A stretch of 64,000 nt of DNA from Akkermansia muciniphila. GTDB taxonomy: Bacteria; Verrucomicrobiota; Verrucomicrobiia; Limisphaerales; UBA9464. A program made the position numbers and the translations under genes. Positions 4,301-30,030 of the stretch are shown here, one piece after another. Location of the stretch: NCBI GenBank assembly GCA_945898055.1, contig CAMDGV010000011.1:668-64667 (forward strand), written 5' to 3'. The notes beneath the pieces are model-generated. The model had not been told where the DNA came from. It was given only the letters and a program-made list of their open reading frames with translations, and made no database searches. Every line of letters begins with the position of its first letter. The stretch's first letter is position 1.

Positions 4301-7181
4301 GGAGGCGGAATTCGTATGATTTTTTAAGAGAATTAAAGAGCGATTGATAGTCGGCGGTTCCCCAGGGAGGACTGGTCGTGGAGAGAGTGTTGGCGATGGT
4401 GTCGTAGTTGACGGGATGCGATTCGAAGGAGAATTCAGCGTCCCAAGGATAAAAACGGAAACGGCTACCAGCCACTCGTTCGCGTGCGGCACGAGTATTG
4501 TTATGAGGCCAATCGTCGTTATCTGCCCAAATATGGGGGAGCAAGTAGTCGATAAAGTTCTCTAAATCCATGCGTGAAGCCACGTCGAGATAGTTAGCCG
4601 TCGAGGTCAGATCCCGACGACTGGCAGTACGCAGGGCATTCCACGCAACCGCATCGCCTCCCAGCAAAAGATTGCCGGCGCCGATGACATCCCAAAGTTC
4701 GCCCCCACCGTGGTAGGCTTTAAGGAAGTCTTCATTGACCCGTTCGGCTGGGTTGTAGATTCCCTTGTACGCACCATTGAGGAAGACATGGACAAAGGTG
4801 CCATGGCACGCGGTGATCCCAATGCTATCGCAGAGACTTCGAACGAACTCATCTTTCAGCAGAGGATTGGTGTTATCGTTCATTCCCGCCCGAAGATGGA
4901 TGGTGTCAAAGGAGTCGATTTGGGTGCCCGGAAAGAGGGGGATTTCGAGTCGTCCTTGGCCGTATTCGCCACGGAAATAAAGACGGAAGGAGTACTTATT
5001 TTCTGGAGGATTCGAGGCTCGGTAATTGTAGAGGCCGCGAATGTAATCACCACCGGCGATCCTCAATCCGGCATCCGTTTGAAAACCACCGTTATCTTCC
5101 GGACGAATCCATTCCACGGAGACAGGCCGTTCCCAAGCGATGCCGTGGAAAGCTGTATTCCGCGGGTTGTATTCCATAATACCCGTCTTTCCGTAGAGAT
5201 GATTGCTGGCAGTGACTAAGGAAACGACAGGGAGAAGACGTCGGGTGGAGGGGAGATTAAAGAGGTAGGTCTGAGTTTGGATGCGGGAAGGTAGTTTATT
5301 AGGAGCAAACGCGGCTACGCGAAGTGCCCGAGTGGCATTGAGTAGAATTGAATTTGTATAAATAAACCCATTGGTAGCCGATGGGGGACTCCCATTGGTG
5401 GTGTAACGAAGAGTTGCATCGGGCGTGGGGCTGCTGAGCGATAATCGGAAAGGGGAGGCGAAGAAGCCTCGTTCAACACTAAAACGGACTTCACCGCTTT
5501 TGCCTTCGAGAACAGAGGTTCCATTGGCGGAATTTGGGCTAGGTTTAGTGAGAAAGTGGTTGGTCGACTGCTGCCCGGTTAGGACTCGACCGTAGCTAAA
5601 GTTCGGTGATTGCTCAGGAAAATCGAACTGATCCAGAGCGATTCGAGGTAATTCCGGCCCGAGTAACCGAAGACGCCCGCCGTTCGGATTGAGTTTGAAA
5701 GAAGTGTGTGGCCGAAGATTAAAGCCATTGCCAGGTCGATCCTTGCCGGAAGCAAAGACCACCGCGAAGCCACCTGCGGGCAAGGTCAGGGCAGGGAACA
5801 CCCAAGCCTCATCGAATTTGTCATTGGGACTGAGAGCCCAACCTTCCAAAGAAATGGGAATGCCGCCTTGATTATGGACTTCAATCCAATCCTCTAAATC
5901 GGTGTCTTCATCCCGCAACCCTCCCAAATTTTCAGCGAGGATTTCATTGATCACCACCGCGGCCCGCGGTGGATTACGGACGAGGGTGTAGCTCCAAGGG
6001 AGACCGTTAAAGGGTTTTGGATTTACGGTGTCCGAAACGATACCTGTCGTCGGGGGCCAACTTAAAATGGCAACTCCAGGAGGAGTGGGGTTGAAGAAAA
6101 AATGGTAAGGACCCGCGCCAACGCCGATGACCCGCAGGGCGGGTGAGCCATTGAGGAGAAGATCTTTGGCCTCCAGGCCGGTGATCGGTTGATTAAACAG
6201 AACTTCGATTTCTGAGAGATGCCCGAGGACGAGGTCCGGTACAGGAAATCGAGAAATCAGCAAGGGAGCAGAACTATCGATGAGATCGTAGTTCCAAGCA
6301 GAACCGGCGGCGGCGGCATCAAAGCGAAGGGTCGGTTGAGAAAGATCGGTGATGTTATGGAGAGCGCCCCATGTGACGGTGACCGCACCAAAGGGGGGTT
6401 GTGGGAAGGTAAAAGTGTAGATGGAACCGCTGCCCGTCACGGCAGTGGCAGGAGAGCCAGAAACGAGGAAATGGCGAGCGAGAACCCCGACAACTGGTCG
6501 GTTAAATTGAACCGTAATTGAGGTCAGATTAGTAAGAGGATCGGGAGGTGGTGAGTAGGAGAGAATGGACGGGGGGTTGCTGAAATGTTCAGTGGCGACA
6601 AGTTCAGCATCGAAGACGCTATCGCTACTGCCCAGAGCACTATTAAAGAGAAGGATGCTGAGAGTATTAGTGCCGGCGACCAGATAGGAAGTGGCGTTGG
6701 GCAGCGGGTACTCAACAACATCACCAAACTCGAGTGTCGTGGTTGCGAGAGCGGAATGGGTCGCCGCGAGATCAGATTCAGGAGCATTAACGGTCAGAAC
6801 CCGGTGCCCATTGATCCAGACCGCAAGACCGTCGTCAAATTGAGTTCGCAAGCTTAGTGCGCTCAGTTTTGAGGGGGAGAGACTGAGGAAAGTGCGCCGC
6901 AGGAAGACCGTGCTGTAGGCGTTTTGCATATCAGTAAGTTCCGTGCCTCGGCCAGAAAAAGTAGCTTCACCATAGTGGAATGGAGCGACACTCACGGACC
7001 AACTCGCGTCATTAAAACCACTTTGACGCCAAGCGTCAGCCGCCTCCGGTGTGGGGTGGGTTATGCCACGAAAAAAGCGCCAAGAGCTGTTGAGCGGAAA
7101 AATCGAGTTCGCTTGAAGTTCAAGGGTCAGAAGTAGAGTCAAGAGACTACTGCGGAGTAAGAAATTGAGACCGTGGAGCAT
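1332..7181 (-). CDS. Giant secreted CotH-domain protein with multiple lamin-tail-domain (LTD) modules and a C-terminal thrombospondin-type-3-like acidic repeat
   Basis: 1949 aa with an N-terminal signal-like segment (LLLTLELQANS). At least six LTD-like modules are present (INEILAENLGGLRDEDTDLEDWIEVHNQG, YEFIELKNTG, ADWVELRNVG, PDWIELHNSS, PDWVEVENVS, DEFIELFNAE). CotH-type motifs are YSFRLYFRGEYGQGRLEIPLFPG and FVHVFLNGAYKGIYNPAER. The C-terminus has DADADGLPDDWE...DTDGDGISNLDEF. Confidence 0.8.
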   Translation of the reverse strand: MLHGLNFLLRSSLLTLLLTLELQANSIFPLNSSWRFFRGITHPTPEAADAWRQSGFNDASWSVSVAPFHYGEATFSGRGTELTDMQNAYSTVFLRRTFLSLSPSKLSALSLRTQFDDGLAVWINGHRVLTVNAPESDLAATHSALATTTLEFGDVVEYPLPNATSYLVAGTNTLSILLFNSALGSSDSVFDAELVATEHFSNPPSILSYSPPPDPLTNLTSITVQFNRPVVGVLARHFLVSGSPATAVTGSGSIYTFTFPQPPFGAVTVTWGALHNITDLSQPTLRFDAAAAGSAWNYDLIDSSAPLLISRFPVPDLVLGHLSEIEVLFNQPITGLEAKDLLLNGSPALRVIGVGAGPYHFFFNPTPPGVAILSWPPTTGIVSDTVNPKPFNGLPWSYTLVRNPPRAAVVINEILAENLGGLRDEDTDLEDWIEVHNQGGIPISLEGWALSPNDKFDEAWVFPALTLPAGGFAVVFASGKDRPGNGFNLRPHTSFKLNPNGGRLRLLGPELPRIALDQFDFPEQSPNFSYGRVLTGQQSTNHFLTKPSPNSANGTSVLEGKSGEVRFSVERGFFASPFRLSLSSPTPDATLRYTTNGSPPSATNGFIYTNSILLNATRALRVAAFAPNKLPSRIQTQTYLFNLPSTRRLLPVVSLVTASNHLYGKTGIMEYNPRNTAFHGIAWERPVSVEWIRPEDNGGFQTDAGLRIAGGDYIRGLYNYRASNPPENKYSFRLYFRGEYGQGRLEIPLFPGTQIDSFDTIHLRAGMNDNTNPLLKDEFVRSLCDSIGITACHGTFVHVFLNGAYKGIYNPAERVNEDFLKAYHGGGELWDVIGAGNLLLGGDAVAWNALRTASRRDLTSTANYLDVASRMDLENFIDYLLPHIWADNDDWPHNNTRAARERVAGSRFRFYPWDAEFSFESHPVNYDTIANTLSTTSPPWGTADYQSLFNSLKKSYEFRLHFADRIHRAFFNEGPLTDARIRLLYGALKARLAPSISGYRDIITPWISGRRTPLMAAFQRAGFLASSNAPVMNTFGGRVPSGFLLTLTNRVGPIWFTTNGSDPRMAFTSTNTVPEARRFSRALALTEPVRIRARSLNGTNWSALTEATFTPAQIGLPIRFSEIMYHPPGGDAYEFIELKNTGAIPLDLSGFQFNGITYRFPSLTPLLQPTQLLLLANRSRTNAFLNRYPNRTVNGWFEGSLSNGGEQISLLDRAGQVIASTHYGDSIHWPTAADGGGSSLENNRLDADPNDPANWQAGPNGGSPGAPNASPIPLSVQLNEIQSNGSADWVELRNVGSTSLSLAQWSLSDDTNPRQFVFPNKTQLAPGAFLRVHSTLSTNEGLLRAPFRLNRSGEALALFDASTNRVDLVSYAEIPEGFTLGRADTGIWTLGRPTPSSANEPVLHFGPSTALAINEFVCNPEKGPDWIELHNSSDLPIGLEGWAFQITNALSRIESPLFIGPNGFLVFATDNPVGANQLHFPLPASGGILSLLDPTAAEINRIQYSAQLTGTVLARLPDDTGPFQSLFLSETPGTSNRPTELGMSLRLVEVAARTTPDWVEVENVSTQPISLSDCRLEVNAPDSPPIRLPLGSGRRLAPRERALIFCGAIPTHLNADQSSLVVPIPLPDHGAVLSLFDTLGRLIDRLDYGQQITNRSLIRLHPNWFLSATNTPGTANSDPAPLGLGSSLTLNEWKSTGGSSDEFIELFNAEALPVNLTHWILTDDPSMRGSTNNPIGPLNFIDGFGFSKFRLNGSEANALGTKLSFRLNSLGETLQLITPSGRIADSIDFFKQSGATSTGRFPDGATLITQLDPSPGLFNRFLTLDADADGLPDDWERANGLNPENTTDALIDTDGDGISNLDEFRSGTRPSDASSAFRLNAERATGNGLLLHFTATVGRSYSILSTGALGEPWMSISQIPSGPLREISVPVSESLTSTRLYRLITPSVP

Positions 7182-16074: not shown

Positions 16075-16623
<549 letters not shown>

Positions 16624-16626
<3 letters not shown>

Positions 16627-16665
16627 TTATTGATAGGAAATTGCTTTTTTGACGTGGAGGGAAAA
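16624..16665 (+). repeat. Island-boundary repeat, copy B (left end of island; inverted partner of copy C)
   Basis: TAATTATTGATAGGAAATTGCTTTTTTGACGTGGAGGGAAAA. Its first three bases are the coaD TAA stop. Confidence 0.8.
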
Positions 16666-16749
16666 AAAGAAACTATTTGGACGATTGCACGCTTAGCCTC
16701 GACGCTCCTCGCCGAAATGCCCTAACTAGGCACCCTCAGTCGCAGTGAA

Positions 16750-16990
16750 GCCGGCCTGAGCGGCCTCGCGCCCTACAACCGGGACAGCGGCGTGCACAGC
16801 GGACGCCGCACCCCTACGGTGGCTGCCCGCAAGTGCGCCGGGTGCTCTCGATGGAGGCCCTCGGCGCGGCCGCTTTAACCCGATTCTGAAAACGTTTTAC
16901 GACCGGCTCGTAGCCGACGTCAAAGCCAAGAAAATCGCCCTCATCGCCTTCATGCGCCTCCTAAAGAACCCAAAATTTAAGTTCGCCTGA
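16750..16990 (+). mobile_element. IS110-family transposase C-terminal remnant (frameshifted, no N-terminal catalytic part)
   Basis: Reads AGLSGLAPYNRDSGVHSGRR..., then after a frame change RFNPILKTFYDRLVADVKAKKIALIAFMRLL. This matches the conserved IS110 C-terminal pattern LAGLAPFNRDSG...NPVLKAFYQRL...GKPKKVALVACMRKLL. The segment is very GC-rich. Confidence 0.65.
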
Positions 16991-17037
16991 AAGACCGTTG
17001 CTGGCCCACTGGACCCAAGGTCTGACGACCGCCTTCA

Positions 17038-17078
17038 TTTTCCCTCCACGTCAAAAAGCAATTTTCTACTAATAATTA
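17038..17078 (-). repeat. Island-boundary repeat, copy C
   Basis: TTTTCCCTCCACGTCAAAAAGCAATTTTCTACTAATAATTA. Its reverse complement matches copy B over about 41 nt, with a few substitutions and one T-run length difference. Confidence 0.8.
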
Positions 17079-17233
17079 GAATGGTTAAAGGAATGCGCGC
17101 GTGTTAAGAAAACACTCCGAATTTTTCCACCCGTGTCCGGCTGTTGAAGAATAGCCTGCGCAGGGATGGCGAAACCTGCAACCTACTTGAATCCGGTCTC
17201 GAAATTTATCCGCCACTCATTACATACTTACCC

Positions 17234-18700
17234 ATGAATCTCCGGCGTGACCTCCCAGCCTCCCTTGTCGTCTTCCTCGTCGCTGTGCCGTTGTCCCTCG
17301 GCATCGCCTTTGCCTCTGGGGCACCGATCATCGCGGGTCTGATCGGTGCGATGGTGGGCGGGATTGTTACAGGACTGCTTGCTGGGTCACCGCTTCAAGT
17401 TTCGGGTCCAGCGGCCGGCCTGACCGTCGTCGTGGCGGGGTTGGTCGCTCAATTTGGCTGGGAGACGATGTGTTTGATCACGGCTTGTGCGGGGGTGATT
17501 CAGCTTTTGTTGGGTTGGTTCAAGGTGGCACGCGGGGCTCTGATCATTGCGCCGGCCGTCGTGCATGGCATGCTGGCGGGCATCGGCATCTCCATCGCGC
17601 TGGCGCAGATTCATGTGGTGCTCGGCGGTTTGCCGCAGAGTTCACCGGTGGTGAATCTACTCGGTATTCCGAAGCAGCTCGGTCTGGTGAATACGCAGGC
17701 GGCGATTCTTGGTTTGCTGACCATCGCCATCCTTATCATTTGGAAGAAACTTCCCTTCAAAGCCATCCCAGGACCGCTGGTGGCGGTGGTGGCTGGTACG
17801 GTATTGTCCATCTTGATGAAAATGGACGTGAAGCGTGTGGATCTACCGGAGACCTTCGAGTTGACCAAACTAACACCGCCGGAGCATTGGGGGCCGTTTA
17901 TAACCGCGGTCCTGACGGTGGCGATCATCGCGAGCATCGAGTCCCTGCTCTGTGCGGTGGCCACGGACAAGTTGCACAGCGGTGTACGTTCGGATTTGGA
18001 CAAAGAATTGCGGGCGCAAGGCGCGGGAAATCTCGTCTCCGGCCTTCTCGGCGGCCTGCCGATCACGGGTGTGATCGTGCGATCCTCGGCAAACATCATC
18101 GCGGGTGGTGTGAGCCGTTGGTCGGCCATTATCCATGGCGTGTGGATTCTGCTTTTCGTGCTGTTTGCCCGCAACGTGATCGAATCCATCCCGCTGGCCG
18201 TGCTGGCTGGCCTGCTGGTGCATGTCGGTATCAACTTGGTGAATCTCCATCACATCAAAGAGCTGACGAAGCACAATGAGATCCTCATCTACTGGGCCAC
18301 GGTGCTCGGTGTGACCTGTGCGAATCTCCTCGCGGGTGTCGGCATCGGTGTGGGCCTCAGCGTTTTCTTCCTGCTGCGTCGTCTTTCAAACACCGACGTA
18401 AAAATGGCGCAACGTGACGGAAAATGGCAGGTGAAGATCGGAGGCACGCTCACGTTTGCCTCCGTGCCAAGGCTGAACGCCGAACTCTCGAAAATCCCCG
18501 CCGGTCACCCTGTCGAGATCGATCTCGCGGTCGATTTCATCGACCATGCGGCCTTTGAATCGATACACGGATGGCGTCAAAATCACGAAAAGACCGGTGG
18601 CCCTGTCGAGATCGATGAAACGCACGAGCAATGGTACAAGCCCGCCCAAGCGGGCACGCCACGCCAAGGAAAGTCTCTGCCAGCGGCAGCTAAAACCTGA
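17234..18700 (+). CDS. SulP-family anion transporter with C-terminal STAS domain (candidate bicarbonate transporter)
   Basis: N-terminus LVAVPLSLGIAFASGAP, many TM segments, and a C-terminal STAS-like segment KWQVKIGGTLTFASVPRLNAEL...VEIDLAVDFIDHAAFESI. The ATG at 17234 is preferred over the TTG at 17144. Confidence 0.88.
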   Translation: MNLRRDLPASLVVFLVAVPLSLGIAFASGAPIIAGLIGAMVGGIVTGLLAGSPLQVSGPAAGLTVVVAGLVAQFGWETMCLITACAGVIQLLLGWFKVARGALIIAPAVVHGMLAGIGISIALAQIHVVLGGLPQSSPVVNLLGIPKQLGLVNTQAAILGLLTIAILIIWKKLPFKAIPGPLVAVVAGTVLSILMKMDVKRVDLPETFELTKLTPPEHWGPFITAVLTVAIIASIESLLCAVATDKLHSGVRSDLDKELRAQGAGNLVSGLLGGLPITGVIVRSSANIIAGGVSRWSAIIHGVWILLFVLFARNVIESIPLAVLAGLLVHVGINLVNLHHIKELTKHNEILIYWATVLGVTCANLLAGVGIGVGLSVFFLLRRLSNTDVKMAQRDGKWQVKIGGTLTFASVPRLNAELSKIPAGHPVEIDLAVDFIDHAAFESIHGWRQNHEKTGGPVEIDETHEQWYKPAQAGTPRQGKSLPAAAKT

Positions 18701-18706
18701 TTTAAC

Positions 18707-21700
18707 ATGTCTGACGCGGACCAGCACCTTACCCATCAGATTCAGCATGCCGCGCATCTGCTACCGGCGCAGGGGCCAATCGGGGTGTTCATCCATCACA
18801 ACACGCTGCATGCCTTTGAAGATCAGACTTTTGATGAAGCGGTACGCACGGGGTCAAAGGTGTTTGGATGTCAGCCGTATCTTTCGGAGGATCGCTACCG
18901 CGAGGAACTGACGCGCGGGCGCATCCGCTTTGATGAACTGCGCGCGGTTTTGGAGCGTGATCTGGGTGAAATGGCGACAGTGAGCGTGCATGGCCTTTCA
19001 CGGCGGCTCGATCTGCGGTTGGCCATGCTGCAGCATCCGTTGCGCAGCGGCGACGGCCGTGAGCTTGACTGGTTCATGGCGGAAACGGACGCGCTGCTGA
19101 AGGCTCGACGCGATGTCTCCGAGGTTGAGAGGCGGCGTTTAATTACTGAGACACGACATTGGGTCATGCGCAGATTGCGCGGATCTCTGCCTGATGTAGA
19201 GCGGCCCGCATGGATTAAAGATCTGTTTCTACGCTTCAAAGAAACACGCATTGAGGACTGGCATGATGAACGTTGGGAGGCTTTCACGATGTCGGCGCTC
19301 TGGGAGGTTTGTCGGGAAGGGGTACGCCTCGCGGGTGAACATACACCAGCAGCGAAGCCGCTGATCCGTCATCGTGATCTGCTGAATGCTCACGGAGGCA
19401 TGGACAGCGATTTGCTAGTGAATGACGTGCTCATCCGCTTTTGCGCCTCCTTCCTCGATCAAGGCATCGCTCACTGGGCGCTACCGGAGCGTGATGCAGG
19501 CTTTTATGCGTCGTTTTGCTCGCTGCATAGCCAAGGGGACATCACTTCGGCGTGGTGGATGACAGGTGTGCGCCGCGAGATGCAGCGATTGCAAAGTGAG
19601 AAGGTCAGCGCCCTCGAGTGCCTGCATGAGTCGTTGGCTGCACTGGGCGTGAAGACGGATGAAGTCGAAGATTTCCTCTCGGCCACGCTCCTGGCCCTGC
19701 GTGGCTGGGGTGGCATGATCTGGCATGTGGAGCAGCGTGCAGACCGCGTGCATCATGCGGTGCCAGAAGGCACGTTGATCGACTTTTTGGCTGTACGGCT
19801 TTTGTTGGAGCGGTTCGCCGTTCCGGCGGCAGCGGGCAGTTCCATGGGTTACAAAGGCCCGCTCACTGAAATGCGCGAACAATTGGCCGCCCAGATCCCG
19901 TCCGCCCAGCCGAACTGTGATAAGCAACGTGCCTTTCTCGTGTTTCAGTTAGCGCAAGTGCTCGGCTGGACGCCCGCTCAGTTGTTTCATCTTACGCTGG
20001 ACTCGTGGGTGGAGTTGTTTGATGAAATCGAAGGCTTCACCGAGTTGGATCGACGCCGGGTGTTTCATCTGGCCTACGAGCATCGTTTCCGCGTGCAGAC
20101 GATGGATGCGCTGGCTTCACGCAGTGGGCGCAGCGTCAAACCCAAGGAGCGTCCGTCGTTTCAGGCGGTGTTTTGTATCGACGAACGTGAAGAGTCGATC
20201 CGCAGGCATGTCGAGGAGGTCGCGCCGACCGCAGAAACCTTTGGCGCAGCGGGTTTCTTTGGAGTGGTGATGTACTATCGCGGTGCAGCAGCAGCGGACT
20301 TCGTGCCACTGTGTCCAGTCGTGGTGCGGCCGCAGCATTGGGTGTCTGAGGTTGTGGATCGTCGTCTGCTCGATGAAGAAAAGCGCCGCAGCGGCGCACG
20401 CCGTCGTCTGGGCATGGCGCTGACGAGTTTTCACGGCGGCAGTCGTCGCATCGTGAGTGGTGCGTTCTTATCCGCGACGATCGGCTTGCTCGCTACGGTG
20501 CCGCTCGTCGCGCGCGTGGTTTTCCCGCGACTCACCGCCCGGTTTCGAGGTTTCTTCGGCAGCTTCATCGCGCCGTCACCCGTTACCCGGCTCAAACTAG
20601 AGCGCAGTTGCGAGAAGGCATCCCACGCAGATGAGGCGCACGGTTTCTTGCCGCAAGAAATGATCAACATCGCCGAGCGCATCCTGCGTGACATCGGCCT
20701 CACCAGCGGTTTTGCCCGCGTGGTGTTCGTCTTTGGTCACGGCTCCACCAGTATGAATAATCCCCACGAGTCGGCGCATGACTGTGGGGCCTGCGGCGGT
20801 GGCGTGGGTGGGCCAAATGCGCGTGCCATTGCTGAGATGCTCAATGATCCGCGCATTCATACAGCCTTAAAGCCGCGCGGCATCCAGATCCCCGCAGACA
20901 CCGTTTTCATCGGTGGTCTGCACAATACCGCGAACGACAACCTCACCTTCTCCGACGTGGATCGCGTGCCGCAGACGCATCAGTTCGAGTTTGAAGTGGC
21001 GTGCAAAGCCATGAACGAGGCGGTGGAGCGGAATGCGCACGAGCGTGCCCGCCGCTTCGGCTCCGCATCACTCGGACTCACGCAAACCGCAGCGAAGCGC
21101 CACATGGAGGGCCGGTCCGAAGATTTATCTCAAGTGCGGCCCGAGTGGGGCCACGCGACGAACGCCATCTGCATCGTTGGTCGTCGTGAAAAGACGCGCG
21201 GGCTGTTCCTCGACCGCCGCGCCTTCCTCGTGTCTTACGATCCGGAGCAAGATGATGCGGAGACGGCGATCCTGGCCCGCATCCTCGGTGCGGTGGTGCC
21301 GGTGTGCAGCGGCATCAATCTGGAATACTATTTCTCCTATGTGGACTCACCCGGCTGGGGCAGCGGGTCGAAGCTGCCGCACAACATCACCGGCCTGCTC
21401 GGCGTCATGGATGGTGCCATGAGTGACCTGCGCACGGGGTTGCCCTGGCAGATGGTCGAGATTCACGAGCCGGTGCGATTGCTCTTCGTCATCGAAACGA
21501 ATGCTGCGGCCTTTTTGGCGATCATGGAGAAGAACGCTGCGATCAAAACGATGGTGACCAAGTTGTGGGTGCAGGTCGCGCTGATGGATCCAGCCACTGG
21601 AGCGCTCAGCCTGTATCAAAATGGTCAGTTCGAGCCCTATCAAAGCCACGCGGGTCCGCTACCGGTCGCTGCGTCATCCAAGGAATGGTACACCGGTTGG

Positions 21701-21742
21701 AGAGAGCATCTGGAGTTCGCTGAAATCAAAGCCGCCGCGTGA
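18707..21742 (+). CDS. dabA: DabA / DUF2309 family protein (inorganic-carbon pump, beta-CA-like subunit)
   Basis: N-terminal LLPAQGPIGVFIHHNTLHAFE. CIDERE supplies Cys490 and Asp492. GHGSTSMNNPHESAHDCGACGG supplies His678 and Cys693. This is the family's Cys/Asp/His/Cys zinc-site pattern. 1011 aa. Confidence 0.88.
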   Translation: MSDADQHLTHQIQHAAHLLPAQGPIGVFIHHNTLHAFEDQTFDEAVRTGSKVFGCQPYLSEDRYREELTRGRIRFDELRAVLERDLGEMATVSVHGLSRRLDLRLAMLQHPLRSGDGRELDWFMAETDALLKARRDVSEVERRRLITETRHWVMRRLRGSLPDVERPAWIKDLFLRFKETRIEDWHDERWEAFTMSALWEVCREGVRLAGEHTPAAKPLIRHRDLLNAHGGMDSDLLVNDVLIRFCASFLDQGIAHWALPERDAGFYASFCSLHSQGDITSAWWMTGVRREMQRLQSEKVSALECLHESLAALGVKTDEVEDFLSATLLALRGWGGMIWHVEQRADRVHHAVPEGTLIDFLAVRLLLERFAVPAAAGSSMGYKGPLTEMREQLAAQIPSAQPNCDKQRAFLVFQLAQVLGWTPAQLFHLTLDSWVELFDEIEGFTELDRRRVFHLAYEHRFRVQTMDALASRSGRSVKPKERPSFQAVFCIDEREESIRRHVEEVAPTAETFGAAGFFGVVMYYRGAAAADFVPLCPVVVRPQHWVSEVVDRRLLDEEKRRSGARRRLGMALTSFHGGSRRIVSGAFLSATIGLLATVPLVARVVFPRLTARFRGFFGSFIAPSPVTRLKLERSCEKASHADEAHGFLPQEMINIAERILRDIGLTSGFARVVFVFGHGSTSMNNPHESAHDCGACGGGVGGPNARAIAEMLNDPRIHTALKPRGIQIPADTVFIGGLHNTANDNLTFSDVDRVPQTHQFEFEVACKAMNEAVERNAHERARRFGSASLGLTQTAAKRHMEGRSEDLSQVRPEWGHATNAICIVGRREKTRGLFLDRRAFLVSYDPEQDDAETAILARILGAVVPVCSGINLEYYFSYVDSPGWGSGSKLPHNITGLLGVMDGAMSDLRTGLPWQMVEIHEPVRLLFVIETNAAAFLAIMEKNAAIKTMVTKLWVQVALMDPATGALSLYQNGQFEPYQSHAGPLPVAASSKEWYTGWREHLEFAEIKAAA

Positions 21743-23106
21743 CCATGCCTGTCCTCGAATCCTTTCTCTCCACACTCGGGCTACTCATCGTCGCCGCACC
21801 CGTGCTGCTGCTCGCCGTGTTCTTTGGTACCTTTTTGACCCAGCGGCGACTCCAAGAGGCCACCATTGGCACCCTAGTCCAAGGCAGCATCGGCTTCAGC
21901 CTACTGTCCGCCGTGGGGGCGGCTGCCACCATGCTATGGCACCGCGTGGCGCAGCACCCCATCGAGCTGGGAGATTGGGTGATCACGCCGCACTATCATT
22001 TGAGTTTCGAGTTCGTTCTCGATCTGCTCTCACTCTCTTATGTGATGCTCACGCTCGTCTTGTGTGCCGTGATCGCGGCTTTCTCCACGCGCTACCTGCA
22101 TCATGAGCGTGGCTACAATCGCTTCTTCGTACTGTTTGCTCTCTTCCTACTTGGGATGGTCACAGCATCGCTGTCGGACACGGTGGAAACGCTGTTTGCA
22201 GGCTGGGAAATGGTGGGGCTATCCTCCGTGTTGCTCATCGCATTCTTCCAAGAGCGGCCCGCGCCGCCGCGCAATGGTCTGCGGGTGTGGGTGGTCTATC
22301 GCATCTGCGACGTGGCGCTGCTACTTGCTGCCATCTTGATGCATGAAATCAACGGTGCGGGTGATTTCGACCATCTCGTGGGCAAAAGCGCCTGGCCTGC
22401 ACACGATCCGCTGCTCATCGGTCCGCACTTCACCATGCTGGGAGTCCTCTTCATCATTGCCGCAGCGGGTAAATCTGCCCTGGTGCCTTTCTCCGGTTGG
22501 CTGCCGCGTGCCATGGAGGGCCCGACGCCTTCAAGTGCGGTGTTTTATGGGGCACTCAGCGTGCATCTCGGCGCGTTTTTGCTGCTGCGCGTGAGTCCGG
22601 TCCTGGACAGCTCCATCTGGCTACAAGTCGCTGTCGTGGTGCTCGGCTCTACGACGTCTGCCTTTGCCTATCTCGCCGGTCGCGTGCAGACGGACATCAA
22701 ATCCGCACTCGCCTTTGCCTCACTGACTCAAGTCGGACTCATCATTTCCGAAATCGGCCTCGGCTTTCGCTACCTCGCGCTCTTGCATCTACTCGGCCAT
22801 GCCTGCCTGCGCACGCTGCAATTCCTGCGCGCACCCAGCTTGCTGCACGATCATCACCAACTCGAAAACGCCATTGGCAGTCGGCCGCGTGAGGAAGGCG
22901 TGATGTGGGAGCAACGCTTGTCGCCGAAGATGCAGCTCTGGCTTTACCGCTTCTCACTGGAGCGCGGCTATCTCGACACCCTGCTCGAAAAATTCGTCGC
23001 ACGTCCGTTTGTCGCGCTGTTTCGCGGCTTAGACGAGTTGGAGACAAAATGGGCTAAACTGCTTGATGGCGAGTCCAAGGCGAAGGAGGCGCCGCGAGAC
23101 CAATGA
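21739..23106 (+). CDS. dabB: NuoL/MrpA-type proton-conducting antiporter-like subunit (DabB-like)
   Basis: Canonical PF00361-type segment FSGWLPRAMEGPTPSSAVFYGALSVHLGAFLLLRV and about 12 TM segments. The GTG start overlaps the dabA stop (GTGA at 21739-21742). An in-frame ATG at 21745 is an alternative start. Confidence 0.85.
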   Translation: MTMPVLESFLSTLGLLIVAAPVLLLAVFFGTFLTQRRLQEATIGTLVQGSIGFSLLSAVGAAATMLWHRVAQHPIELGDWVITPHYHLSFEFVLDLLSLSYVMLTLVLCAVIAAFSTRYLHHERGYNRFFVLFALFLLGMVTASLSDTVETLFAGWEMVGLSSVLLIAFFQERPAPPRNGLRVWVVYRICDVALLLAAILMHEINGAGDFDHLVGKSAWPAHDPLLIGPHFTMLGVLFIIAAAGKSALVPFSGWLPRAMEGPTPSSAVFYGALSVHLGAFLLLRVSPVLDSSIWLQVAVVVLGSTTSAFAYLAGRVQTDIKSALAFASLTQVGLIISEIGLGFRYLALLHLLGHACLRTLQFLRAPSLLHDHHQLENAIGSRPREEGVMWEQRLSPKMQLWLYRFSLERGYLDTLLEKFVARPFVALFRGLDELETKWAKLLDGESKAKEAPRDQ

Positions 23107-24428
23107 TCGATTTTTCTTGGCTCGGAGTCACTTTACTCTTGCCACTGCTCGGGGCGGTGGTCGCGGTGTTCCTCAAAGTGCCCGCTGTGGCCATGCGGGT
23201 GAGTTTGGGCTTCTTCGCTGGCACTCTGATCACGGCTACAGCGGCCAATCTGACCTTTGCAGGCCCGAAGCTCGCGTGGCTGAACCATTTCGCTGTCGAT
23301 GATCTCGCCGCGCCGATGCTGCCTGTGTTGGCGCTGCTGCATCTGCTCACGCTGCTTGGCACGGCAAAGTCGCGCGTGTCGCCGATGTTCTGTGTTCGTC
23401 TATTGATCGCGGCATTCGTCAGTCTCGCGGCTGTGACATGTCAGACGCCGGCCATACTCATTGCGCTGCTGGTGCTCGGCGTGCTGGTGCCGCTGTGGGA
23501 TCTGATGAGCCGCGGCCAACCCGTGCGCGGTTACTTGATCCATATGAGCTTCTTTGTCGCGCTGCTCGTGACTGGTTGGCAGTTTGTAGGTCAAGACATC
23601 GGCTATGGCCTGCTACTGATCGCGCTGCTGCTGCGCGGCGGCATCGTGCCACTGCATGGCTGGCTACCCACGCTTTTTCAAGGTGCTGCGTATGGTACGG
23701 CGATGGTCTTTGTGCTGCCGCTGATGGAGGTACTGGCCGCGCTGCGACTGCTACTACCCTCCACGCCCGAGTGGATGCTGAATGCAGCCGGCGTCGTGTG
23801 CCTGATCACAGCTGTGTACGGCGGCGGCATGGCCATCGTGCAAAATGAGGTGCGGAAGTTCTTTGCTCATCTCTGCCTCAGTCAGACTGCGCTGGTGATG
23901 TTCGCCGTGATGCTGCACACCTCAAACGGCCTCACCGCTGCGCTGTGTTTGTGGATTTCCTCCTCGCTGGCTCTCGCAGGTCTCGCCTTCTCGGTGCGTG
24001 CGTTGGAAGCCCGCTTCGGCCCGCTCTCATTGCGAGAATTTCACGGCTTCTACGAGCAGGTGCCCGGCTTGGCGATCTGCTTTCTGATGACCGGACTCGC
24101 CAGCGTAGGGTTTCCAGGGACCATCGGCTTTGTGCCGATGGAGCTGCTCATCAGCGGCAGCGTCGAGCAGGGACTCGGGGTCAGCCTCACCTTAGCTATC
24201 GCCGCCATGCTCAACGGCGTCGCCATCATGCGTGCCTACTTCGCGCTCTTCACTGGCAAACGTCCCACGACCTCCGTCTCGCTGCAAAAGACACCGATGG
24301 AACGTGCTGGCATCATCCTCATCGCGCTGATCGTTTTTCTCGGCGGATGGTTCTCACCCGGCATGGTGGCGTCACGCCATCACACGGCTGATCGGTTGCT
24401 GGACCGGGTGCTTGTGGAGACGCGATGA
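23103..24428 (+). CDS. Second, divergent antiporter-like (NuoM/N/MrpD-type) membrane subunit
   Basis: Polytopic membrane protein with an ATGA overlap onto the preceding gene (23103-23106). The homologous segment HGWLPTLFQGAAYGTAMVFVLPLMEVLAAL keeps the WLP framework but lacks the PTPxSA core. Confidence 0.7.
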   Translation: MIDFSWLGVTLLLPLLGAVVAVFLKVPAVAMRVSLGFFAGTLITATAANLTFAGPKLAWLNHFAVDDLAAPMLPVLALLHLLTLLGTAKSRVSPMFCVRLLIAAFVSLAAVTCQTPAILIALLVLGVLVPLWDLMSRGQPVRGYLIHMSFFVALLVTGWQFVGQDIGYGLLLIALLLRGGIVPLHGWLPTLFQGAAYGTAMVFVLPLMEVLAALRLLLPSTPEWMLNAAGVVCLITAVYGGGMAIVQNEVRKFFAHLCLSQTALVMFAVMLHTSNGLTAALCLWISSSLALAGLAFSVRALEARFGPLSLREFHGFYEQVPGLAICFLMTGLASVGFPGTIGFVPMELLISGSVEQGLGVSLTLAIAAMLNGVAIMRAYFALFTGKRPTTSVSLQKTPMERAGIILIALIVFLGGWFSPGMVASRHHTADRLLDRVLVETR

Positions 24429-24431
24429 GGC

Positions 24432-24710
24432 ATGCCCCCTGGCCCGGTTGCATTATCTCCCCTCAAGGGAATGGGTTTTCGAGAGGTGAAGATGGTTCTT
24501 GAGAGCAAGTCCATCACGCCTCCTCACAAAGTAATGTCGCATCCTGCCGAGCCCGCCTTCGTTCATCCGATTACAGCCTCGGTGGTTGGCTACCTTCCGT
24601 ATCCGCCGAAGCGCAAGAAGCCGCTCGCGAGTGATCTGCGGATCGCGGAAAAGGCCAAGAAGCCTGCGATCTTCACGCTCGACAATCTCCGCCGCGATGC
24701 GCTCGACTGA
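24432..24710 (+). CDS. Hypothetical 92-aa ORF directly after the dab operon
   Basis: It starts 3 nt after the preceding stop and has no recognisable motif. The opposite strand is also open over this stretch, as expected in GC-rich DNA, so coding status is uncertain. Confidence 0.2.
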   Translation: MPPGPVALSPLKGMGFREVKMVLESKSITPPHKVMSHPAEPAFVHPITASVVGYLPYPPKRKKPLASDLRIAEKAKKPAIFTLDNLRRDALD

Positions 24711-25119
24711 TCGATCACCGGCCTTATCGCAGTGCCGCTGACGGTGGGGATCTGCCTCAGGTCGGAGGATTCGATCGAGACAGGTTTGATGACGGTGCTG
24801 TTCGCCTTTGTGGCAGTTTCATCACGTCCTTATTCCGTCGAGGAAACTACGTCGTCGTCCCCGGAGTCGCCGATGGACTAGCGCCCGTGCTGGCGATAAG
24901 CGTGCATAAATTTGGCATGGAGAACAGGCCGCTTCTGATCTTCCTCACCTCGCTATCACAAGCTGTCGGGTGGAAGTTTAACCTCCAGCCCCCCCAAAAA
25001 AACTCAGACACTAAAAGCTAGATCGCCACAAAAACTAATCGCCGGGCGCATTGACAGCTTATCTTCGAGGAAAGTAAAGTGTTAGGGCAGTAGTACAAAG
25101 CCCCATTTGCCTTTCTTGG

Positions 25120-25146
25120 CTCCACGTTAAAGCGATTTCCTATCAA
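25120..25146 (-). repeat. Island-boundary repeat, copy F
   Basis: CTCCACGTTAAAGCGATTTCCTATCAA matches the core of copies C, D and E. Confidence 0.65.
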
Positions 25147-25543
25147 TGACTTTATTCACACTTGTCGGTTTTTGGAATCAGCTCAGGAGACGTCGAGGCT
25201 CATCCCAACCCGGACTCGATGGGTCCAGTCGGCACCAGCCTGCTTCGGCGGCGATCAAGCAGGCACCCCGCTTCTCGCCCGTGGCCATCGTCCGGATGAC
25301 CTACCTAGGCCTAGGTGTGTGTTTTGCATTTTTTTTCGCAAACGGGTGGAACCAACGCAAACCCGAGGGAACCTGGTTTCCACGGGGCATTTCCGATACG
25401 ATTCAGCTGCTACAACTACGGGGTGGCGAACACGTTGGGAAATCTGATAGGATTTGACGACTTCACTCCTTCAGACGTTTCGAGAGCAATGAATGACGCA
25501 GCCAAATATATGACAAGTGAGACTGTTTCGCCTTCGCTTTTCG

Positions 25544-25585
25544 CCTCCACGTAAGGGCAATTTCCTATGAACCAATTTCCTATCA
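25544..25585 (-). repeat. Island-boundary repeat, copy E, plus a partial duplicate of its inner end
   Basis: CCTCCACGTAAGGGCAATTTCCTATGAACCAATTTCCTATCA. CAATTTCCTAT occurs twice, at 25558-25568 and 25573-25583. The glycosyltransferase ATG (25567-25569) overlaps the end of the repeat. Confidence 0.65.
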
Positions 25586-28500
25586 GTTGTTCAGTTACCG
25601 AACTCGGACTCCCCGTCCGCTGGTTGGCACCGATCTTCAACCCCAGCGGGTATGCCAGCGAGGCCATCAACTTCGTGCTGCCGTTGGAAAATCGCTGCAC
25701 CTTGGGAATCAATCATAAAACTAACGTCTATTCTGAGGGCTTCACCCGAGGCCTGCCGTCCGCTGACCGCGAGGCGCTCTTTCGGATGCGCGACCGGTTT
25801 GAAGGAATGAGTGGCGGCATTGTCGTCTTCCACAATCCGGCCGGCGGCTTCATCCGCCTTCCTGATGCCGACTACAGCATCGGCCGCACAATGTTCGAGA
25901 CCGATCGCATCGCACCCGAATGGGTTGCCGCCTGCAACCGGATGGATGAGGTGTGGGTACCCTCGCAGTTCAATCTTGAGACCTTTGCCGCCAGCGGAGT
26001 CGAACGTTCGAAATTGGTGGTGATTCCAGGTGCGGTGGATTCGGAGTTTTTCGATCCGGCCCGGCATACGGTCTACCCGTTGCCCAGCAAGGCCCGGTTC
26101 AATTTTCTGTCGATTTTCGAGTGGTCCTCCCGCAAGGGCTGGGACGTGTTGTTGGCTGCTTATTTGCGGGAGTTCTCGGCCGAGGACGACGTGTGCCTGT
26201 GGCTGCGCACCTACTTGTTCTCTAAGCCCGACGGGGATCCGACCGAGGCGATCTGGCAACGGATCCGGGCGTTCACCGCATCGTTGGGTTTGGAGGGTAA
26301 AAATCTGCCCCGGATCGAACTCATTGCCGATCAGGTGCCTAGCGCGCAATTGCCGGGGTTATACTTGGCCTGCGACTGCTACGTGGCTCCAAGTCGGGGC
26401 GAGGGCTGGGGACGCCCGCAACACGAGGCCATGCTTATGGAGCGGCCGGTCATTGCCACCAACTGGAGTGCCAACACCGAGTTCATGTCCGAGAAGACCA
26501 GCTACTTGCTGAACTATGAAGTGGTCGAAGCGCGCGGTCTCGAACCCGAGCTCTGGCACTACAAGGGGCACCGCTGGGCCAATCCTTCCGAGACCCACTT
26601 GCGATCGCTGATGCGCCGGGTGTTCACCCATCCGGAGGAAGCCCGCGTCAAGGGCCAGGCGGCCCGCCAACACATGGCCCGCCACTACAGCCGGGAGGCC
26701 GTGGCTGACCAGGTGACGCACCGGTTGCAAGTAATCGAGCGCTCGTTGCTCTCACCGCAATTGCCACCGGCACGGGCAATCGATCTCCATGGATCGGACG
26801 CGACGAACTCCCCCATGTCAGCAGGACCTAACGCAAGGCCTAACGCCACCCTCACCGTGTCACTGGAAGGATCCTTCCTCGACCTAGGTTCTCTCTCGCA
26901 TGTGAATCGCTCTCTGATCCGGGGCCTCAACCAAGAGCCCCGGTTCCGAGCTGTCGCCGTCTCGACAGACACCACGACGGCCAATCCCAATTCCCCGGAT
27001 CTGAAGGGTTGGTCTCAGCGAGTGCAGAAGCGCTCCCCCTCGGACACCGCGATCACCCTACGTCACGACTGGCCGCCGAACTGGCGTCGCCCGGAATACG
27101 GGGCATGGGTACTGATCCAGCCTTGGGAATTCGGATCCATCCCTGCCGAGTGGGCGACCGAAGCCCTGAATGTAGATGAGATCTGGTGCCCCAGCCGCTA
27201 CGTCCGGAGTTTGTACCTGCAGGCGGGTATCCCGAGGGAAAAACTCCGGGTGCTGCCCAACGGCTACAATCCCGCGATTCACCATCCCGGAGCCGCACCC
27301 ACGCCCATCGCCACGAGCAAGCGCTTCAAGTTCCTCTTCGTCGGCGGAACCATCGCTCGCAATGGATCAGACCTGTTGTTGGAGACTTACCTGAAAACCT
27401 TCCGCCGTTCCGACGACGTGTGCTTGGTGATCAAGGACTTCGGCGGCAAATTGGCCTACCGGGGGCAGACCTTGTCCGAGCGAATCCAAGCGGCTCAGAC
27501 CGACCCAGCAGCACCGGAGATCGTGTATTTCGATCAGGAGTTGTCCGAGCACGACCGGGCCGGGCTCTACACCGCCTGCGACTGCCTGGTGCACCCTTAC
27601 CGCGGCGAGAGCTTTGGACTCTCGGTGCTTGAGGCGATGGCCTGCGCGCTGCCCGTGATTTGCACCGGGGGCGGTTCCACCGACGATTTCGCTACCGATG
27701 AGTTCGTTCATCGCATCCCGGCCACTCGGGAATTTGTCGGCAACGAAGTGGACGGTCTGAAACTGGACCATCGAGGCTGGTGGTTGACCCCAGATCCGGA
27801 TGCTTTGGGCCTAGCCCTCCGCGCAGCCGTAGAACAAGCACCGCAGTGGAGGCAACGAGCCCACCTAGGCTCCGAGCATGTGGCCGCCCATTGGACCTGG
27901 AAAAACGCCGCACAAACCGCCGCCCGTTTTGCTTGGGAGTTGGTGGCCCGCCGCACAGCCCAGATGGAAGAGAAGGCTCGCCTCGCGCGATCGAAGCGTC
28001 CGTTGACCTTGCCCGAGGTTTCCTTCCAGGGAGATCTGCTAGCCGCCAGAAAGGCCTTCCAAACGAAGAACATCCCGGACGCTTGGCGACTGGCCTGCAC
28101 TGCCATTGAAGAGCGTCCCTTCCACCCAGAAGGATGGGTCTTCTTGAGCGAGGTGGCTGTCAGCGCGGGTCATCGGGCCCTAGCCCGCCGTTGCGCCCAG
28201 AAGGCCGTCGCTCTGGCACCCAACTGGAAGCCAGCTCTGCGGCAACTCTCCAGCATTACCAGTGGGGCCGACAAACCCACGGTCGAATTGAGCGCCCCCC
28301 CGTTGCGCGAAGGTTTGGCGCCACGCCTGTCGGTCTGCCTCATTGCCAAGAACGAGGAACGTTTCCTCGACGGCTGCCTCCAATCGATCCGCGGCTTGGC
28401 CGATCAACTCATTCTGGTGGACACCGGATCCACGGATCGAACCGTGGAAATCGCCCGCAACCACGGGGCCGAAGTCCATTTCCGAGCTTGGGACCACGAC

Positions 28501-29937
28501 TTCAGTGCCGCCCGCAATGCCGCCCTGCTGCACGCCCGCGGCGACTGGGTCTTGATCCTGGATGCCGACGAAGAAGTCTCCCCGGCGCAACACGTAGCGC
28601 TGCGTGCGCTCCTGACTCGACCCAACGCGATCGCTTACCGGTTGCCCCTGGTGGACGTCGGTCGCGAAAGTGACGGCGTCAGCCAGGTGCTCCGCCTGTT
28701 CCGCAACGCGCCGCAGCAGTTCTACGTAAGCCGGATCCAAGAAAAGGTGCACACCAGCCTCGAACTGAACCGTGAGAAGTGGAGGATGGAGAACCTCTTC
28801 GGTGACGCACAACTCATCCATTATGGCTCCCAAGCCGAAGTCATGAAGAGTCGGGACAAGGTCCAGCGGAACCTCCGCCTCTTAGAACAAGCCAACGAGG
28901 AACACCCCAACGACGTCAACCTGCTCATGAACCTCGGACTGGAACTTTGGCGATCCGGTCAACACTTCCACGGCATTGGGTACTACCAGCAATCCTACAC
29001 GGCCATGCTGGAGCAACCCTACGCCCAGACACTCCCGGAGTTGAGGGAAGTCCTGCTCACCCAGTACGCTTCGCTCCTGTTGAGCCTCCAACTCTACAAA
29101 GACGTCATCACCCTCTTCCAAGACCAAGCCCTTGCGCCCAAGGCCCGCACGGCCTCGCAGCACTTCATGATGGGGTTGGCTTATTCCGCACTTCAGAACT
29201 GGGAGCCCTGCGTGACCCATTTTCAGCAATGCCTGAAATTGCGGAACCAACCAGCACTCACTCCTATCCATCAGGACATTCGAAGTGCAACCCCGGCCCA
29301 CTGCATGGCTCATGCCCTGCGAAAGCTCGGGCGCAAGGTCGAGGCTAAGAATGCTTATGAACAAGCCCTTCACGACGACCCTCTCAATGAATCGGCGCGG
29401 GTAGAGTTCGCAGTTTTCGAGGCAGAGGAGGGCCAGATTGTTTCAGCCCTCACCCTGCTGCACGCGGGCATCCAGCAGAACCCTATGCAGGCCAAGGTCT
29501 GGGAGGCGGGTGGAGCCCTTTCGCTCCGCCAACGCGACACCCTGGAGTTCGCTCTAGACTGGAGCGGCGAGGCCCTCAAGCACCTGCCCGACCACGCCAC
29601 CTTGCAGCGGCAGCGGGCGGAGGTCCTCTTGCTGAACGGGCAGGCCCACGAGGCCCTACCACTCTGGAGCGAGATGTCACGGTCCAACGATGCGGACAGT
29701 TCCTCCGGCCTCATCCTCTGCCGCCTGTTCGCAGGCGAGTCGCAGTCGGCCGTGCCGCCGGACCGCGAAATGGCCATCAGCCAAGATCTAATCCGGAGAT
29801 ACCGACAGGCGGTGGAAATGGGCCTCGACGCTTGGGTCCACGCCTTGCACCAGCGGGTCGATACTCTTCGTCAGACACTGCCCTCGGCTGCTCGCTTCAT
29901 TGATTTGGTGGTCGCCGAGTCCGGCCCAGAAAAGTGA
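25567..29937 (+). CDS. Multidomain glycosyltransferase: GT4-like, GT4-like, GT2-like, then C-terminal TPR region
   Basis: First GT4 signature: [30 protein letters not shown]. Second GT4 signature: [32 protein letters not shown]2 signature: [21 protein letters not shown]...[10 protein letters not shown]...ILDADEEV. A long TPR-like helical repeat region follows. 1456 aa. Confidence 0.85.
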
Positions 29938-29993
29938 TCAGCCAAATTGCCTATGAAACCCCTAAATCCGCCCTGCCTCCGGCTTCTTTCCCA

Positions 29994-30030
29994 TTTCTCT
30001 CCGCGTCAAAAAGTAATTTCCTATTAATTT
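29994..30030 (-). repeat. Island-boundary repeat, copy D (right end of island)
   Basis: TTTCTCTCCGCGTCAAAAAGTAATTTCCTATTAATTT. The HAD gene stop (reverse-complement TAA at 30024-30026) lies inside it. A partial inner-end-like copy CAAATTGCCTATGAAACC lies at 29943-29960. Confidence 0.75.

Follow-up and report, generated by a model that had tools for sequence, protein, structure and literature searches.

The 64-kb window analyzed here (the whole stretch of contig CAMDGV010000011.1 that was examined) contains one compact plus-strand operon encoding a SulP anion transporter, a DabA-type protein resembling β-carbonic anhydrases (β-CAs), and two membrane proteins related to the complex I subunits NuoL and NuoM. 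The locus is a genuine but common member of an uncharacterized variant class of the DAB inorganic carbon pumps. As judged from alignments, the clade to which it belongs breaks two rules thought to be general for these pumps, namely a leucine in DabA and a histidine in transmembrane helix 8 (TM8) of DabB. The products of the NuoL-like and NuoM-like genes are called P3 and P4 throughout, and the four genes are as follows.

17234-18700, + strand: sulP, 488-aa SLC26/SulP anion transporter, candidate bicarbonate carrier (PF00916)
18707-21742, + strand: dabA, 1011-aa cytoplasmic β-CA-like subunit (PF10070)
21745-23106, + strand: dabB-like NuoL-type gene, product P3 of 453 aa, or 455 aa from the GTG at 21739 (PF00662 + PF00361)
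23103-24428, + strand: NuoM-type third-subunit gene, product P4 of 441 aa, DabC homolog (PF00361)

All four open reading frames (ORFs) are present on the plus strand where the first-pass annotation of this DNA had placed them, and the spacing it described can be read directly from the sequence. The sulP gene starts with an ATG at 17234 and stops with TGA at 18698-18700, leaving 6 nt before the dabA ATG at 18707, and the NuoL-like and NuoM-like genes share an ATGA overlap at 23103-23106. The GTGA overlap proposed between dabA and the NuoL-like gene is possible, but gene callers prefer an in-frame ATG at 21745, 2 nt past the dabA stop. This ATG is used on five public contigs of the same species and is the better start than the overlapping GTG (21739-21742). 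The annotation was likewise right that a second antiporter-like subunit and a SulP gene share an operon with the DAB pair. Only two PF00361 genes occur in the cassette, here and in relatives. It was also considered whether the membrane genes might belong to an operon for complex I or Mrp; this was rejected, as genes for NuoA/H/J/K and MrpB/C/E/F/G are not adjacent, here or in relatives.

DabA matches PF10070 at 3.7e-240 (799.8 bits, gathering cut-off 25) over profile positions 1-747. Its sole relative with a solved structure is DabA2 of Halothiobacillus neapolitanus (9rd0_A; phmmer E 6.5e-75), and in the phmmer alignment C490, D492, H678 and C693 fall on C351, D353, H524 and C539, which are the published zinc-site residues of DabA2 (PMC13147460). 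R494 accompanies D492 in this site. The four ligand positions are invariant among 77 clade members and 47 DabAs carrying the DAB1 motif, the two sets whose aligned columns underlie most of the DabA residue counts given here. The intact CA-like ligand pattern claimed in the first-pass annotation is thus upheld, and the Pfam searches it had proposed returned PF10070 for the 1011-aa protein as well as PF00916 and PF00361 for its neighbors. DabA also has a single strongly hydrophobic hairpin at about 582-600, a candidate for the membrane-inserted "elbow" or "finger" of published DabA structures.

Two 2026 cryo-electron microscopy studies base the one-way hydration of CO2 on an invariant leucine in DabA, which blocks stabilization of bicarbonate, together with a histidine in the DabB channel; their conservation samples comprised 50 DabA1 and 150 DabA2 sequences (bioRxiv 10.64898/2026.05.01.722082; PMC13144422). 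The leucine (L658 in DabA2, L825 in DabA1), reported as strictly conserved, stands in place of the Gln or His that stabilizes bicarbonate in ordinary β-CAs. The window DabA carries instead the clade signature D806-L807...RPEWG-H816, in which H816 aligns with L658, and it therefore lacks the "strictly conserved" residue. This column is His in 77 of 77 clade genomes and Leu in all 47 DAB1-motif sequences. A wider sample, the best 150 relatives from a search of 1.84 billion representatives at 50% identity, has 139 His, 3 Asn and 8 gaps at this position, or His in 139 of the 142 sequences that can be scored. The tryptophan of the DWxxxRPEWGL motif, which according to the structural paper wedges between the DabA elbow and DabB TM11 in Thermocrinis albus, is Leu or Ile in the clade. 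Finally, the window protein has NNPHESAHDCGACGG where DAB1 has its "strictly conserved" motif NNPYESALDCGACGG; at the Tyr position of the latter the clade has H in 71/77 members, and at its Leu position Y or H in 77/77.

P3 matches PF00662 + PF00361 at 6.5e-41. It is nearer to complex I NuoL (E 3e-43) than to DabB2 (E 3e-24), its match to the ndhF3_CO2 model is below threshold (122 bits), and P3-type subunits are about 100 aa shorter than known DabBs (median 464 vs 563). P3 retains E157, D191, K245, H350 and H354, while R358 replaces a Lys and Y270 (with H275) replaces the TM8 His. The titratable set E157, K245, Y270/H275, H350, H354 and R358 is continuous and is invariant in 74-75 orthologs. 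Across the clade, the complex I TM5 Glu (GWE) is kept, whereas it is changed to His, Gln or Tyr in DAB1-type DabBs. The TM7 Lys is also kept, the TM8 His column holds Tyr (Y270) with a conserved His (H275) five residues later, and TM11 reads His-His-Arg (H350, H354, R358) as against His-His-Lys. Neither the TM8 His nor the TM11 His-His-Lys expected of a DabB is thus present in P3. Known DABs lose their function when the TM8 His (H229 in T. albus, H260 in DabB2) is mutated (bioRxiv 10.64898/2026.05.01.722082). From the residue numbering and an invariant His in 38 DAB1-type DabBs, we infer that H229 and H260 correspond to the NuoL H254 column. A Tyr at this position suggests that ion coupling may differ in the clade.

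The fourth gene product, P4, matches PF00361 at 1.6e-18 (67 bits) over the C-terminal two thirds of the profile only. In hhalign comparisons, the P4 family aligned with Escherichia coli NuoM at E 1.2e-23 over 422 columns, and its residues 196-417 aligned with DabC at a probability of 93% (E 2.4e-7, 210 columns), as against E 0.2-0.8 for DabC control comparisons with NuoM, the P3 family, SulP and a reversed P4 alignment. When compared directly, DabC and NuoM gave a nonsignificant E of 0.19, and the two are linked only via full-length intermediates. The DabC candidates used here are membrane ORFs of ~250 aa between dabB and dabA, without a Pfam match, which were obtained by scanning metagenomes for the DabA1-specific motif given above. 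An AlphaFold (AF2) model of P4 (predicted local distance difference test score 88, predicted template modeling score 0.89) found its best Foldseek matches in NuoM, NdhD and MrpD chains, with TM-scores of 0.81-0.89. The channel residues are another matter: Ala, Ile or Val stands in place of the TM5 Glu, an invariant Arg (R178 in the window) replaces the TM7 Lys, the TM8 Lys has no counterpart and the TM12 Glu is not conserved.

By sequence, then, P4 is an entire antiporter-like subunit, forms a bridge between NuoM and DabC and represents a full-length counterpart of the latter. DAB1 is composed of DabA, DabB and the small, essential DabC, whose helices superpose on the NuoM helices beside NuoL and carry hydrophobic residues in place of those of the NuoM proton path (bioRxiv 10.64898/2026.05.01.722082; PMC13144422). 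With its 441 aa and its PF00361 match, P4 is not the small third subunit of DAB1. The name "dabB2", given to the fourth gene in the first-pass annotation, is a misnomer, since this is a NuoM-type DabC homolog without the key channel residues and not a second DabB.

Two further arrangements were seen among metagenome contigs. Eight of them (L093, L099, L108, L114, L120, L130, L143 and L163) have a Leu-type DabA with the DAB1 motif following two tandem NuoL-like genes and a gene for a 435-aa NuoM-like protein, which matches PF00361 with ~39 bits and is homologous to DabC (E 1.2e-8); we found no description of this four-gene DAB layout. On L105 (3906-6212), L117 (1592-3901) and L164 (5935-8514), NuoL-like ORFs of about 770-860 aa abut dabA without a separate DabC gene, and these may be DabB-DabC fusions.

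A scan of one genome per species gave at least 588 confirmed stretches, which belong to the clade because DAB1-type DabAs have neither of the two peptide patterns scanned for. The best 80 (37-80% DabA identity) were studied as loci and annotated by searching with the window's own proteins. The order dabA-P3-P4, all on one strand, is present in essentially every locus of adequate length (about 70 of the 80 sampled), with L045 as the exception, and it holds over 37-86% DabA identity and at least four phyla, with loci from Verrucomicrobiota, Planctomycetota, Acidobacteriota and Sorangium. Among these 80 are Singulisphaera, Tautonia, Roseiconus, Rhodopirellula, three Sorangium genomes, Vicinamibacterales, Blastocatellia and Bryobacterales, as well as metagenome-assembled genomes labeled Prosthecobacter or Brevifollis. 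The full order sulP-dabA-PF00662/PF00361-PF00361 is found in an 86%-identical relative on a 641-kb metagenome contig and in Fimbriiglobus ruber (57%). A protein search returned more than 120 clusters at ≥57% identity, the named ones being Verrucomicrobiaceae, Limisphaerales, Gemmataceae, Planctomycetia and Binatia. The search of 50%-identity representatives returned 4597 DabA relatives, 2027 of them below 1e-30, and puts the clade at no fewer than about 140 clusters at 50% identity. DabAs of the clade and of DAB1 are about 30% identical between groups and about 47% within groups, and the two are reciprocally monophyletic in a midpoint-rooted neighbor-joining tree.

Judged by gene order, the arrangement is thus the standard layout of a large clade found mostly in heterotrophic bacteria and not the local oddity that the first-pass annotation had described. 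Nor is a leading dabA with a third membrane subunit unusual, as it is already the published layout of DAB1 (dabA1, small transmembrane gene, dabB1; PMC13144422). A neighborhood survey of the kind that the annotation had proposed showed the two-PF00361 layout to be widespread and SulP-linked variants to be frequent (31/53 loci). The annotation had set its claim against the possibility of a common, already cataloged form; the form is common, and it does not appear to be cataloged in the literature searched, as publications on DUF2309 with SulP, NuoM or the Planctomycetota-Verrucomicrobiota-Chlamydiota phyla, and on DabC or DAB3, did not describe this variant. The one-, two- and three-subunit DACs of Schmid et al. 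2021 (J Bacteriol) reportedly include a three-subunit class that might contain two-PF00361 forms.

The SulP protein matches PF00916 at 1.9e-70, with a weak STAS match, and falls below the NCBIfam cut-offs for BicA (165.2 vs 880 bits) and DauA (206 vs 614 bits). Its closest relatives of solved structure are BicA (6ki1, 1.1e-32) and the fumarate carrier SLC26Dg (5da0, 7e-32). Of 53 clade loci with enough flank (ambiguous cases being reassigned by hand), 31 have SulP adjoining the DAB genes, directly 3' of P4 in 16, directly 5' of dabA in 10 and divergent upstream in 5, giving same-strand adjacency in 26; the other 22 have no SulP within about 8 kb. The clade SulPs fall into at least two subtypes that are 33-35% identical to each other, and the three positions and at least two subtypes suggest repeated recruitment. 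A SulP lineage dedicated to DABs was considered and rejected: among homologs examined at 72-86% identity, those of 72-79% stand alone, without DAB, in three of the four genomes checked. The window SulP would therefore be an independent transporter under common control rather than a subunit of the complex. In some databases these proteins carry a misleading label, as Joint Genome Institute (JGI) entries for close SulP homologs of ~490 aa (P0448, P0450, P0458 and others) are named "carbonic anhydrase" though they match PF00916 only, a name presumably carried over from fusions of SulP with CA.

The presence of a SulP gene in one operon with CA genes has been taken by others to predict bicarbonate transport (PMC13147460), and relatives of the window cassette show several such connections. 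A β-CA gene (PF00484) is adjacent in eight loci (L070, 7166-7852; L074, 1341-2042; L083, 105-809; L020, 6936-7679; L036, L037, L056 and L072), including two Blastocatellia contigs with the order sulP-CA-dabA-P3-P4; no signal peptide was evident in these β-CAs when their N-termini were judged by eye. In Roseiconus nitratireducens (L040, 14095-16200), the SulP directly after the DAB genes has a C-terminal P-II domain (PF00543, 9.4e-10), a fusion that recalls the cyanobacterial SbtA/SbtB pairing. A Prosthecobacter sp. region (L214, 1-14855; GCA_034366625.1) has sulP-dabA-P3-P4-sulP followed by a sigma-54 response regulator gene and, a few kb from the cassette, by two further SulP genes, of which one is fused to a PF08332 (iota-CA family) domain; this region looks like a small inorganic carbon island. 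Regulators were seen elsewhere too: L016 (4778-7783), like some 20 further Planctomycetota loci, has genes for a histidine kinase and a sigma-54 activator of the NtrC type, which lie divergently just upstream of dabA and may be dedicated to it. No such pair is found in the window.

Taken together, we think it probable that two functional units are encoded in the operon, a DAB-type vectorial carbonic anhydrase of three subunits and a SulP anion carrier that acts on its own, which together would supply inorganic carbon to a heterotroph. DabA, as a zinc-containing β-CA-like protein, would sit on the cytoplasmic face of the NuoL-like channel subunit P3, the DabB of the system, with P4 packed beside it as NuoM packs beside NuoL. 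CO2 diffusing into the cell would be hydrated at the buried zinc site of DabA, and ion flow through DabB, driven by the proton gradient, would make the reaction one-way, so that bicarbonate would accumulate in the cytoplasm. P4, which lacks most of the channel residues, is probably a scaffold or an allosteric partner. SulP, which would be made from the same transcript, most likely moves bicarbonate itself, and the carboxylases of a heterotrophic verrucomicrobium could then be fed from either dissolved carbon species. DABs and MpsAB are known to supply bicarbonate in heterotrophs (10.1101/476713; PMC8567241). The combined bicarbonate and CO2 module suggested by the first-pass annotation remains the most economical reading, supported by the linkage to SulP, β-CA and P-II domains in relatives; the transported substrate and the mode of coupling stay provisional parts of it.

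Several observations weigh against this proposal. In place of the Leu that both structural papers single out in DAB1 and DAB2, members of the clade carry His, and they have Tyr in place of the TM8 His that is essential to DABs. Sequence does not reveal what SulP transports: BicA and a fumarate carrier are equally close, the protein scores under the cut-off of the BicA model, and SulPs of its subfamily also occur without DAB. A β-CA in the same operon, as in some relatives, would dissipate a bicarbonate pool and is unexpected for a pool-building system. In addition, 64 kb cannot establish that the host is a heterotroph or whether it has RuBisCO or other carbonic anhydrases, and our literature searches found no functionally tested member of the clade. 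The His and Tyr substitutions and the occasional β-CA in the operon leave room for another mode of coupling or for a homeostatic role.

Such a homeostatic role would take the form of a pH or ion homeostasis module, in which respiratory CO2 is captured as bicarbonate and a proton, SulP exports or exchanges the bicarbonate, and protons are retained or cytoplasmic pH is regulated. Mrp antiporters, whose role is in pH homeostasis, are built around a NuoL/NuoM pair, and both P3 and P4 have Mrp-type matches. The β-CAs encoded in the same operon, which have no evident signal peptide, fit equilibration better than accumulation, and heterotrophic hosts have plentiful internal CO2. All DAB, DAC and Mps systems tested so far, however, raise internal inorganic carbon, those SulP relatives near CA genes whose function is known act as importers, and we saw no sign of an alkaline habitat. 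We consider this role unlikely.

The same substitutions could instead point to a different enzyme, a membrane-anchored CA that is reversible or weakly coupled, or coupled to Na+ rather than H+, in which case P3 and P4 would mainly be an anchor. The nearly invariant H816 at the Gln/His position of ordinary β-CAs fits this idea, as do Y270 in place of the essential DabB His and a TM5 Glu retained unlike in DAB1-type DabB. On the other side, DabA2 gained no free CA activity from the corresponding substitution L658Q (PMC13144422), the titratable chain in P3 is unbroken, with H275 one turn past Y270, and the strict conservation of both membrane genes argues for a function beyond anchoring. An enzyme of this kind therefore seems rather improbable.

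It is also improbable, to a slightly greater degree, that SulP is a passenger for sulfate or another anion, adjacent to dabA through shared regulation or mobility and not through its substrate. The stand-alone homologs, the loci without SulP and a substrate that sequence does not determine would all suit a passenger. The same-strand adjacency in about half of the loci, with differing subtypes and positions, the 6-nt spacing to dabA here, and the CA and P-II fusions or neighbors of these SulPs in relatives all speak for a functional connection. The view taken in the first-pass annotation, that of a non-canonical composite unusual among DABs and assembled on acquired DNA in this lineage, draws on the foreign composition, the flanking repeats and a layout unlike the textbook dabB-dabA pair, but its claim to uniqueness is refuted by Fimbriiglobus, Singulisphaera, Sorangium and the Acidobacteriota, and we regard it as very hard to sustain beyond the acquisition itself.

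A comparison of the proposed three-subunit complex with characterized systems shows both close parallels and significant disparities. Like DAB1 of T. albus and H. neapolitanus, it has three subunits, a long DabA (1011 aa here, 1046 aa in DabA1), a leading dabA as in H. neapolitanus, a motif close to that of DAB1 and a third subunit that is homologous to DabC and, like it, lacks the NuoM channel residues. Unlike DAB1, the third subunit is full-length (441 aa vs about 250) with its PF00361 match retained, DabA has His for L825 and Leu or Ile for the Trp of the DW motif, and the shorter DabB keeps the TM5 Glu and has Tyr for the TM8 His and Arg for the TM11 Lys; the clade is also often SulP-linked and its hosts are mostly heterotrophs. 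DAB2 (DabA2-DabB2, PDB 9RD0) and Tcr_0853/0854 share with it the pairing of PF10070 with PF00361, a hydrophobic hairpin in DabA, the motifs RPEWG and GFFG and the same zinc ligands, but DAB2 has only two subunits and a shorter DabA, of 827 aa, with the strictly conserved Leu658. MpsAB of Staphylococcus aureus is, like the system proposed here, a DAB homolog serving a heterotroph, but by description it has two subunits and is a proposed Na+/bicarbonate symporter. The cyanobacterial NDH-1MS CO2-uptake module (NdhF3-NdhD3-CupA) also combines a NuoL-type and NuoM-type pair with a cytoplasmic CO2-hydrating protein; in contrast, CupA is unrelated to DabA, and the module belongs to a redox-driven complex whose many additional subunits have no genes in the operon. 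BicA and the SulP-CA pairs and fusions likewise tie a SulP/SLC26 carrier genetically to a CO2/bicarbonate enzyme, although the SulP described here is no BicA equivalog and its partner is a DAB complex, not a soluble CA.

These disparities raise the possibility, which we hold only tentatively, that the clade is a third, ancestral-like class of DAB with a full NuoL/NuoM pair, the complex I Glu-Lys in the NuoL-type subunit, a His of the β-CA/CsoSCA type and a different ion coupling. If so, DAB1, with a truncated DabC and the Leu, and DAB2, with the Leu and no third subunit, would be derived forms. Coupling in the clade would be measurably different, for instance through partial reversibility, another ion or another stoichiometry, and the pairing with SulP, and sometimes with a soluble β-CA, would point to a function different from the build-up of a large bicarbonate pool. 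Whatever its origin, a clade that lacks the Leu and the TM8 His yet is otherwise strongly conserved offers a natural experiment on the residues that enforce directionality, and it supplies the missing sequence link between DabC and NuoM. The usual pairing with SulP in the DABs of abundant soil and aquatic heterotrophs (Planctomycetota, Verrucomicrobiota, Acidobacteriota, Sorangium) also gives a testable clue to the way in which inorganic carbon is managed by such organisms.

In this genome the cassette looks horizontally acquired, and here the compositionally foreign DNA reported in the first-pass annotation is confirmed. GC content at third codon positions (GC3) is 0.68-0.74 in the four cassette genes vs 0.51 ± 0.05 (maximum 0.585) in 21 other window genes, and overall GC is 57-62% over 17-30 kb vs about 52% elsewhere in the window. 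No such contrast is seen in 46 other genomes, where the GC of the cassette minus that of its flanks is just +0.01 ± 0.02, and in the 86%-identical relative it lies within DNA of 58% GC. The flanking genes are not common to that relative or F. ruber. The host hemB clusters with a protein named Pedosphaera sp., and the nearest named relatives of the cassette genes are from Verrucomicrobiaceae and Prosthecobacter. As the same gene order occurs in Fimbriiglobus, Singulisphaera, Sorangium and Acidobacteriota, the cassette would have been acquired ready-made. No empty integration site was found, since the eight contigs with an identical CoaD all fit a cassette in this position, though the two shortest break off ahead of sulP or shortly behind it; its presence on the coaD contigs that reach far enough indicates that it is fixed in the species. 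The neighboring genes are ordinary housekeeping and heterotroph genes, in line with the heterotrophic look that the annotation had reported; the 64-kb window holds housekeeping and carbohydrate genes, with no carbon fixation genes found among them. It also has no tRNA gene, and scans for promoters and terminators gave sites no more numerous than in shuffled sequence.

The cassette is flanked by an approximately 45-bp repeat (TTTTCC-CTCCACGT-A-rich-GCAATTTCCTATCAATAAT), of which all four window copies lie at its borders, where shuffles predict none. The boundary features and the ORF that follows the operon are as follows.

16634-16657 (- strand) and 17046-17068 (+ strand): left boundary repeats, inverted, core CCACGT-N3-9-GCRATTTYCTA, within 16619-17085
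25122-25142 and 25547-25567, both + strand: right boundary repeats, about 0.7-1.1 kb 3' of the operon, within 25113-25582
24432-24710, + strand: 92-aa ORF directly 3' of the operon, probably not part of the system

The inner copies (17046 and 25122) are direct repeats bracketing about 8.1 kb, and no copy of the repeat was present in any fetched locus of a relative. The left inverted pair encloses ~390 bp with a stop-interrupted reading frame ending ...NPILKTFYDRLVADVKAKKIALIAFMRLLKNPKFKFA*, which we take to resemble the C-terminus of an IS110-family transposase. The 92-aa ORF was considered as a component and rejected, having no Pfam match, no hydrophobic segment and no phmmer match in 84 loci; it is annotated as a gene solely on contigs of the same species.

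A 1456-aa protein with GT4, GT2 and TPR domains is encoded at 25567-29937, between repeat copies, with a weaker repeat match at 29993-30009 just 3' of this large glycosyltransferase gene. With its GC3 of 0.74 and its position between repeats, the gene looks like a second foreign block beside the DAB cassette. Farther away, the minus strand at 1332-7181 encodes a 1949-aa protein with lamin-tail, CotH-kinase and chitobiase-C domains.

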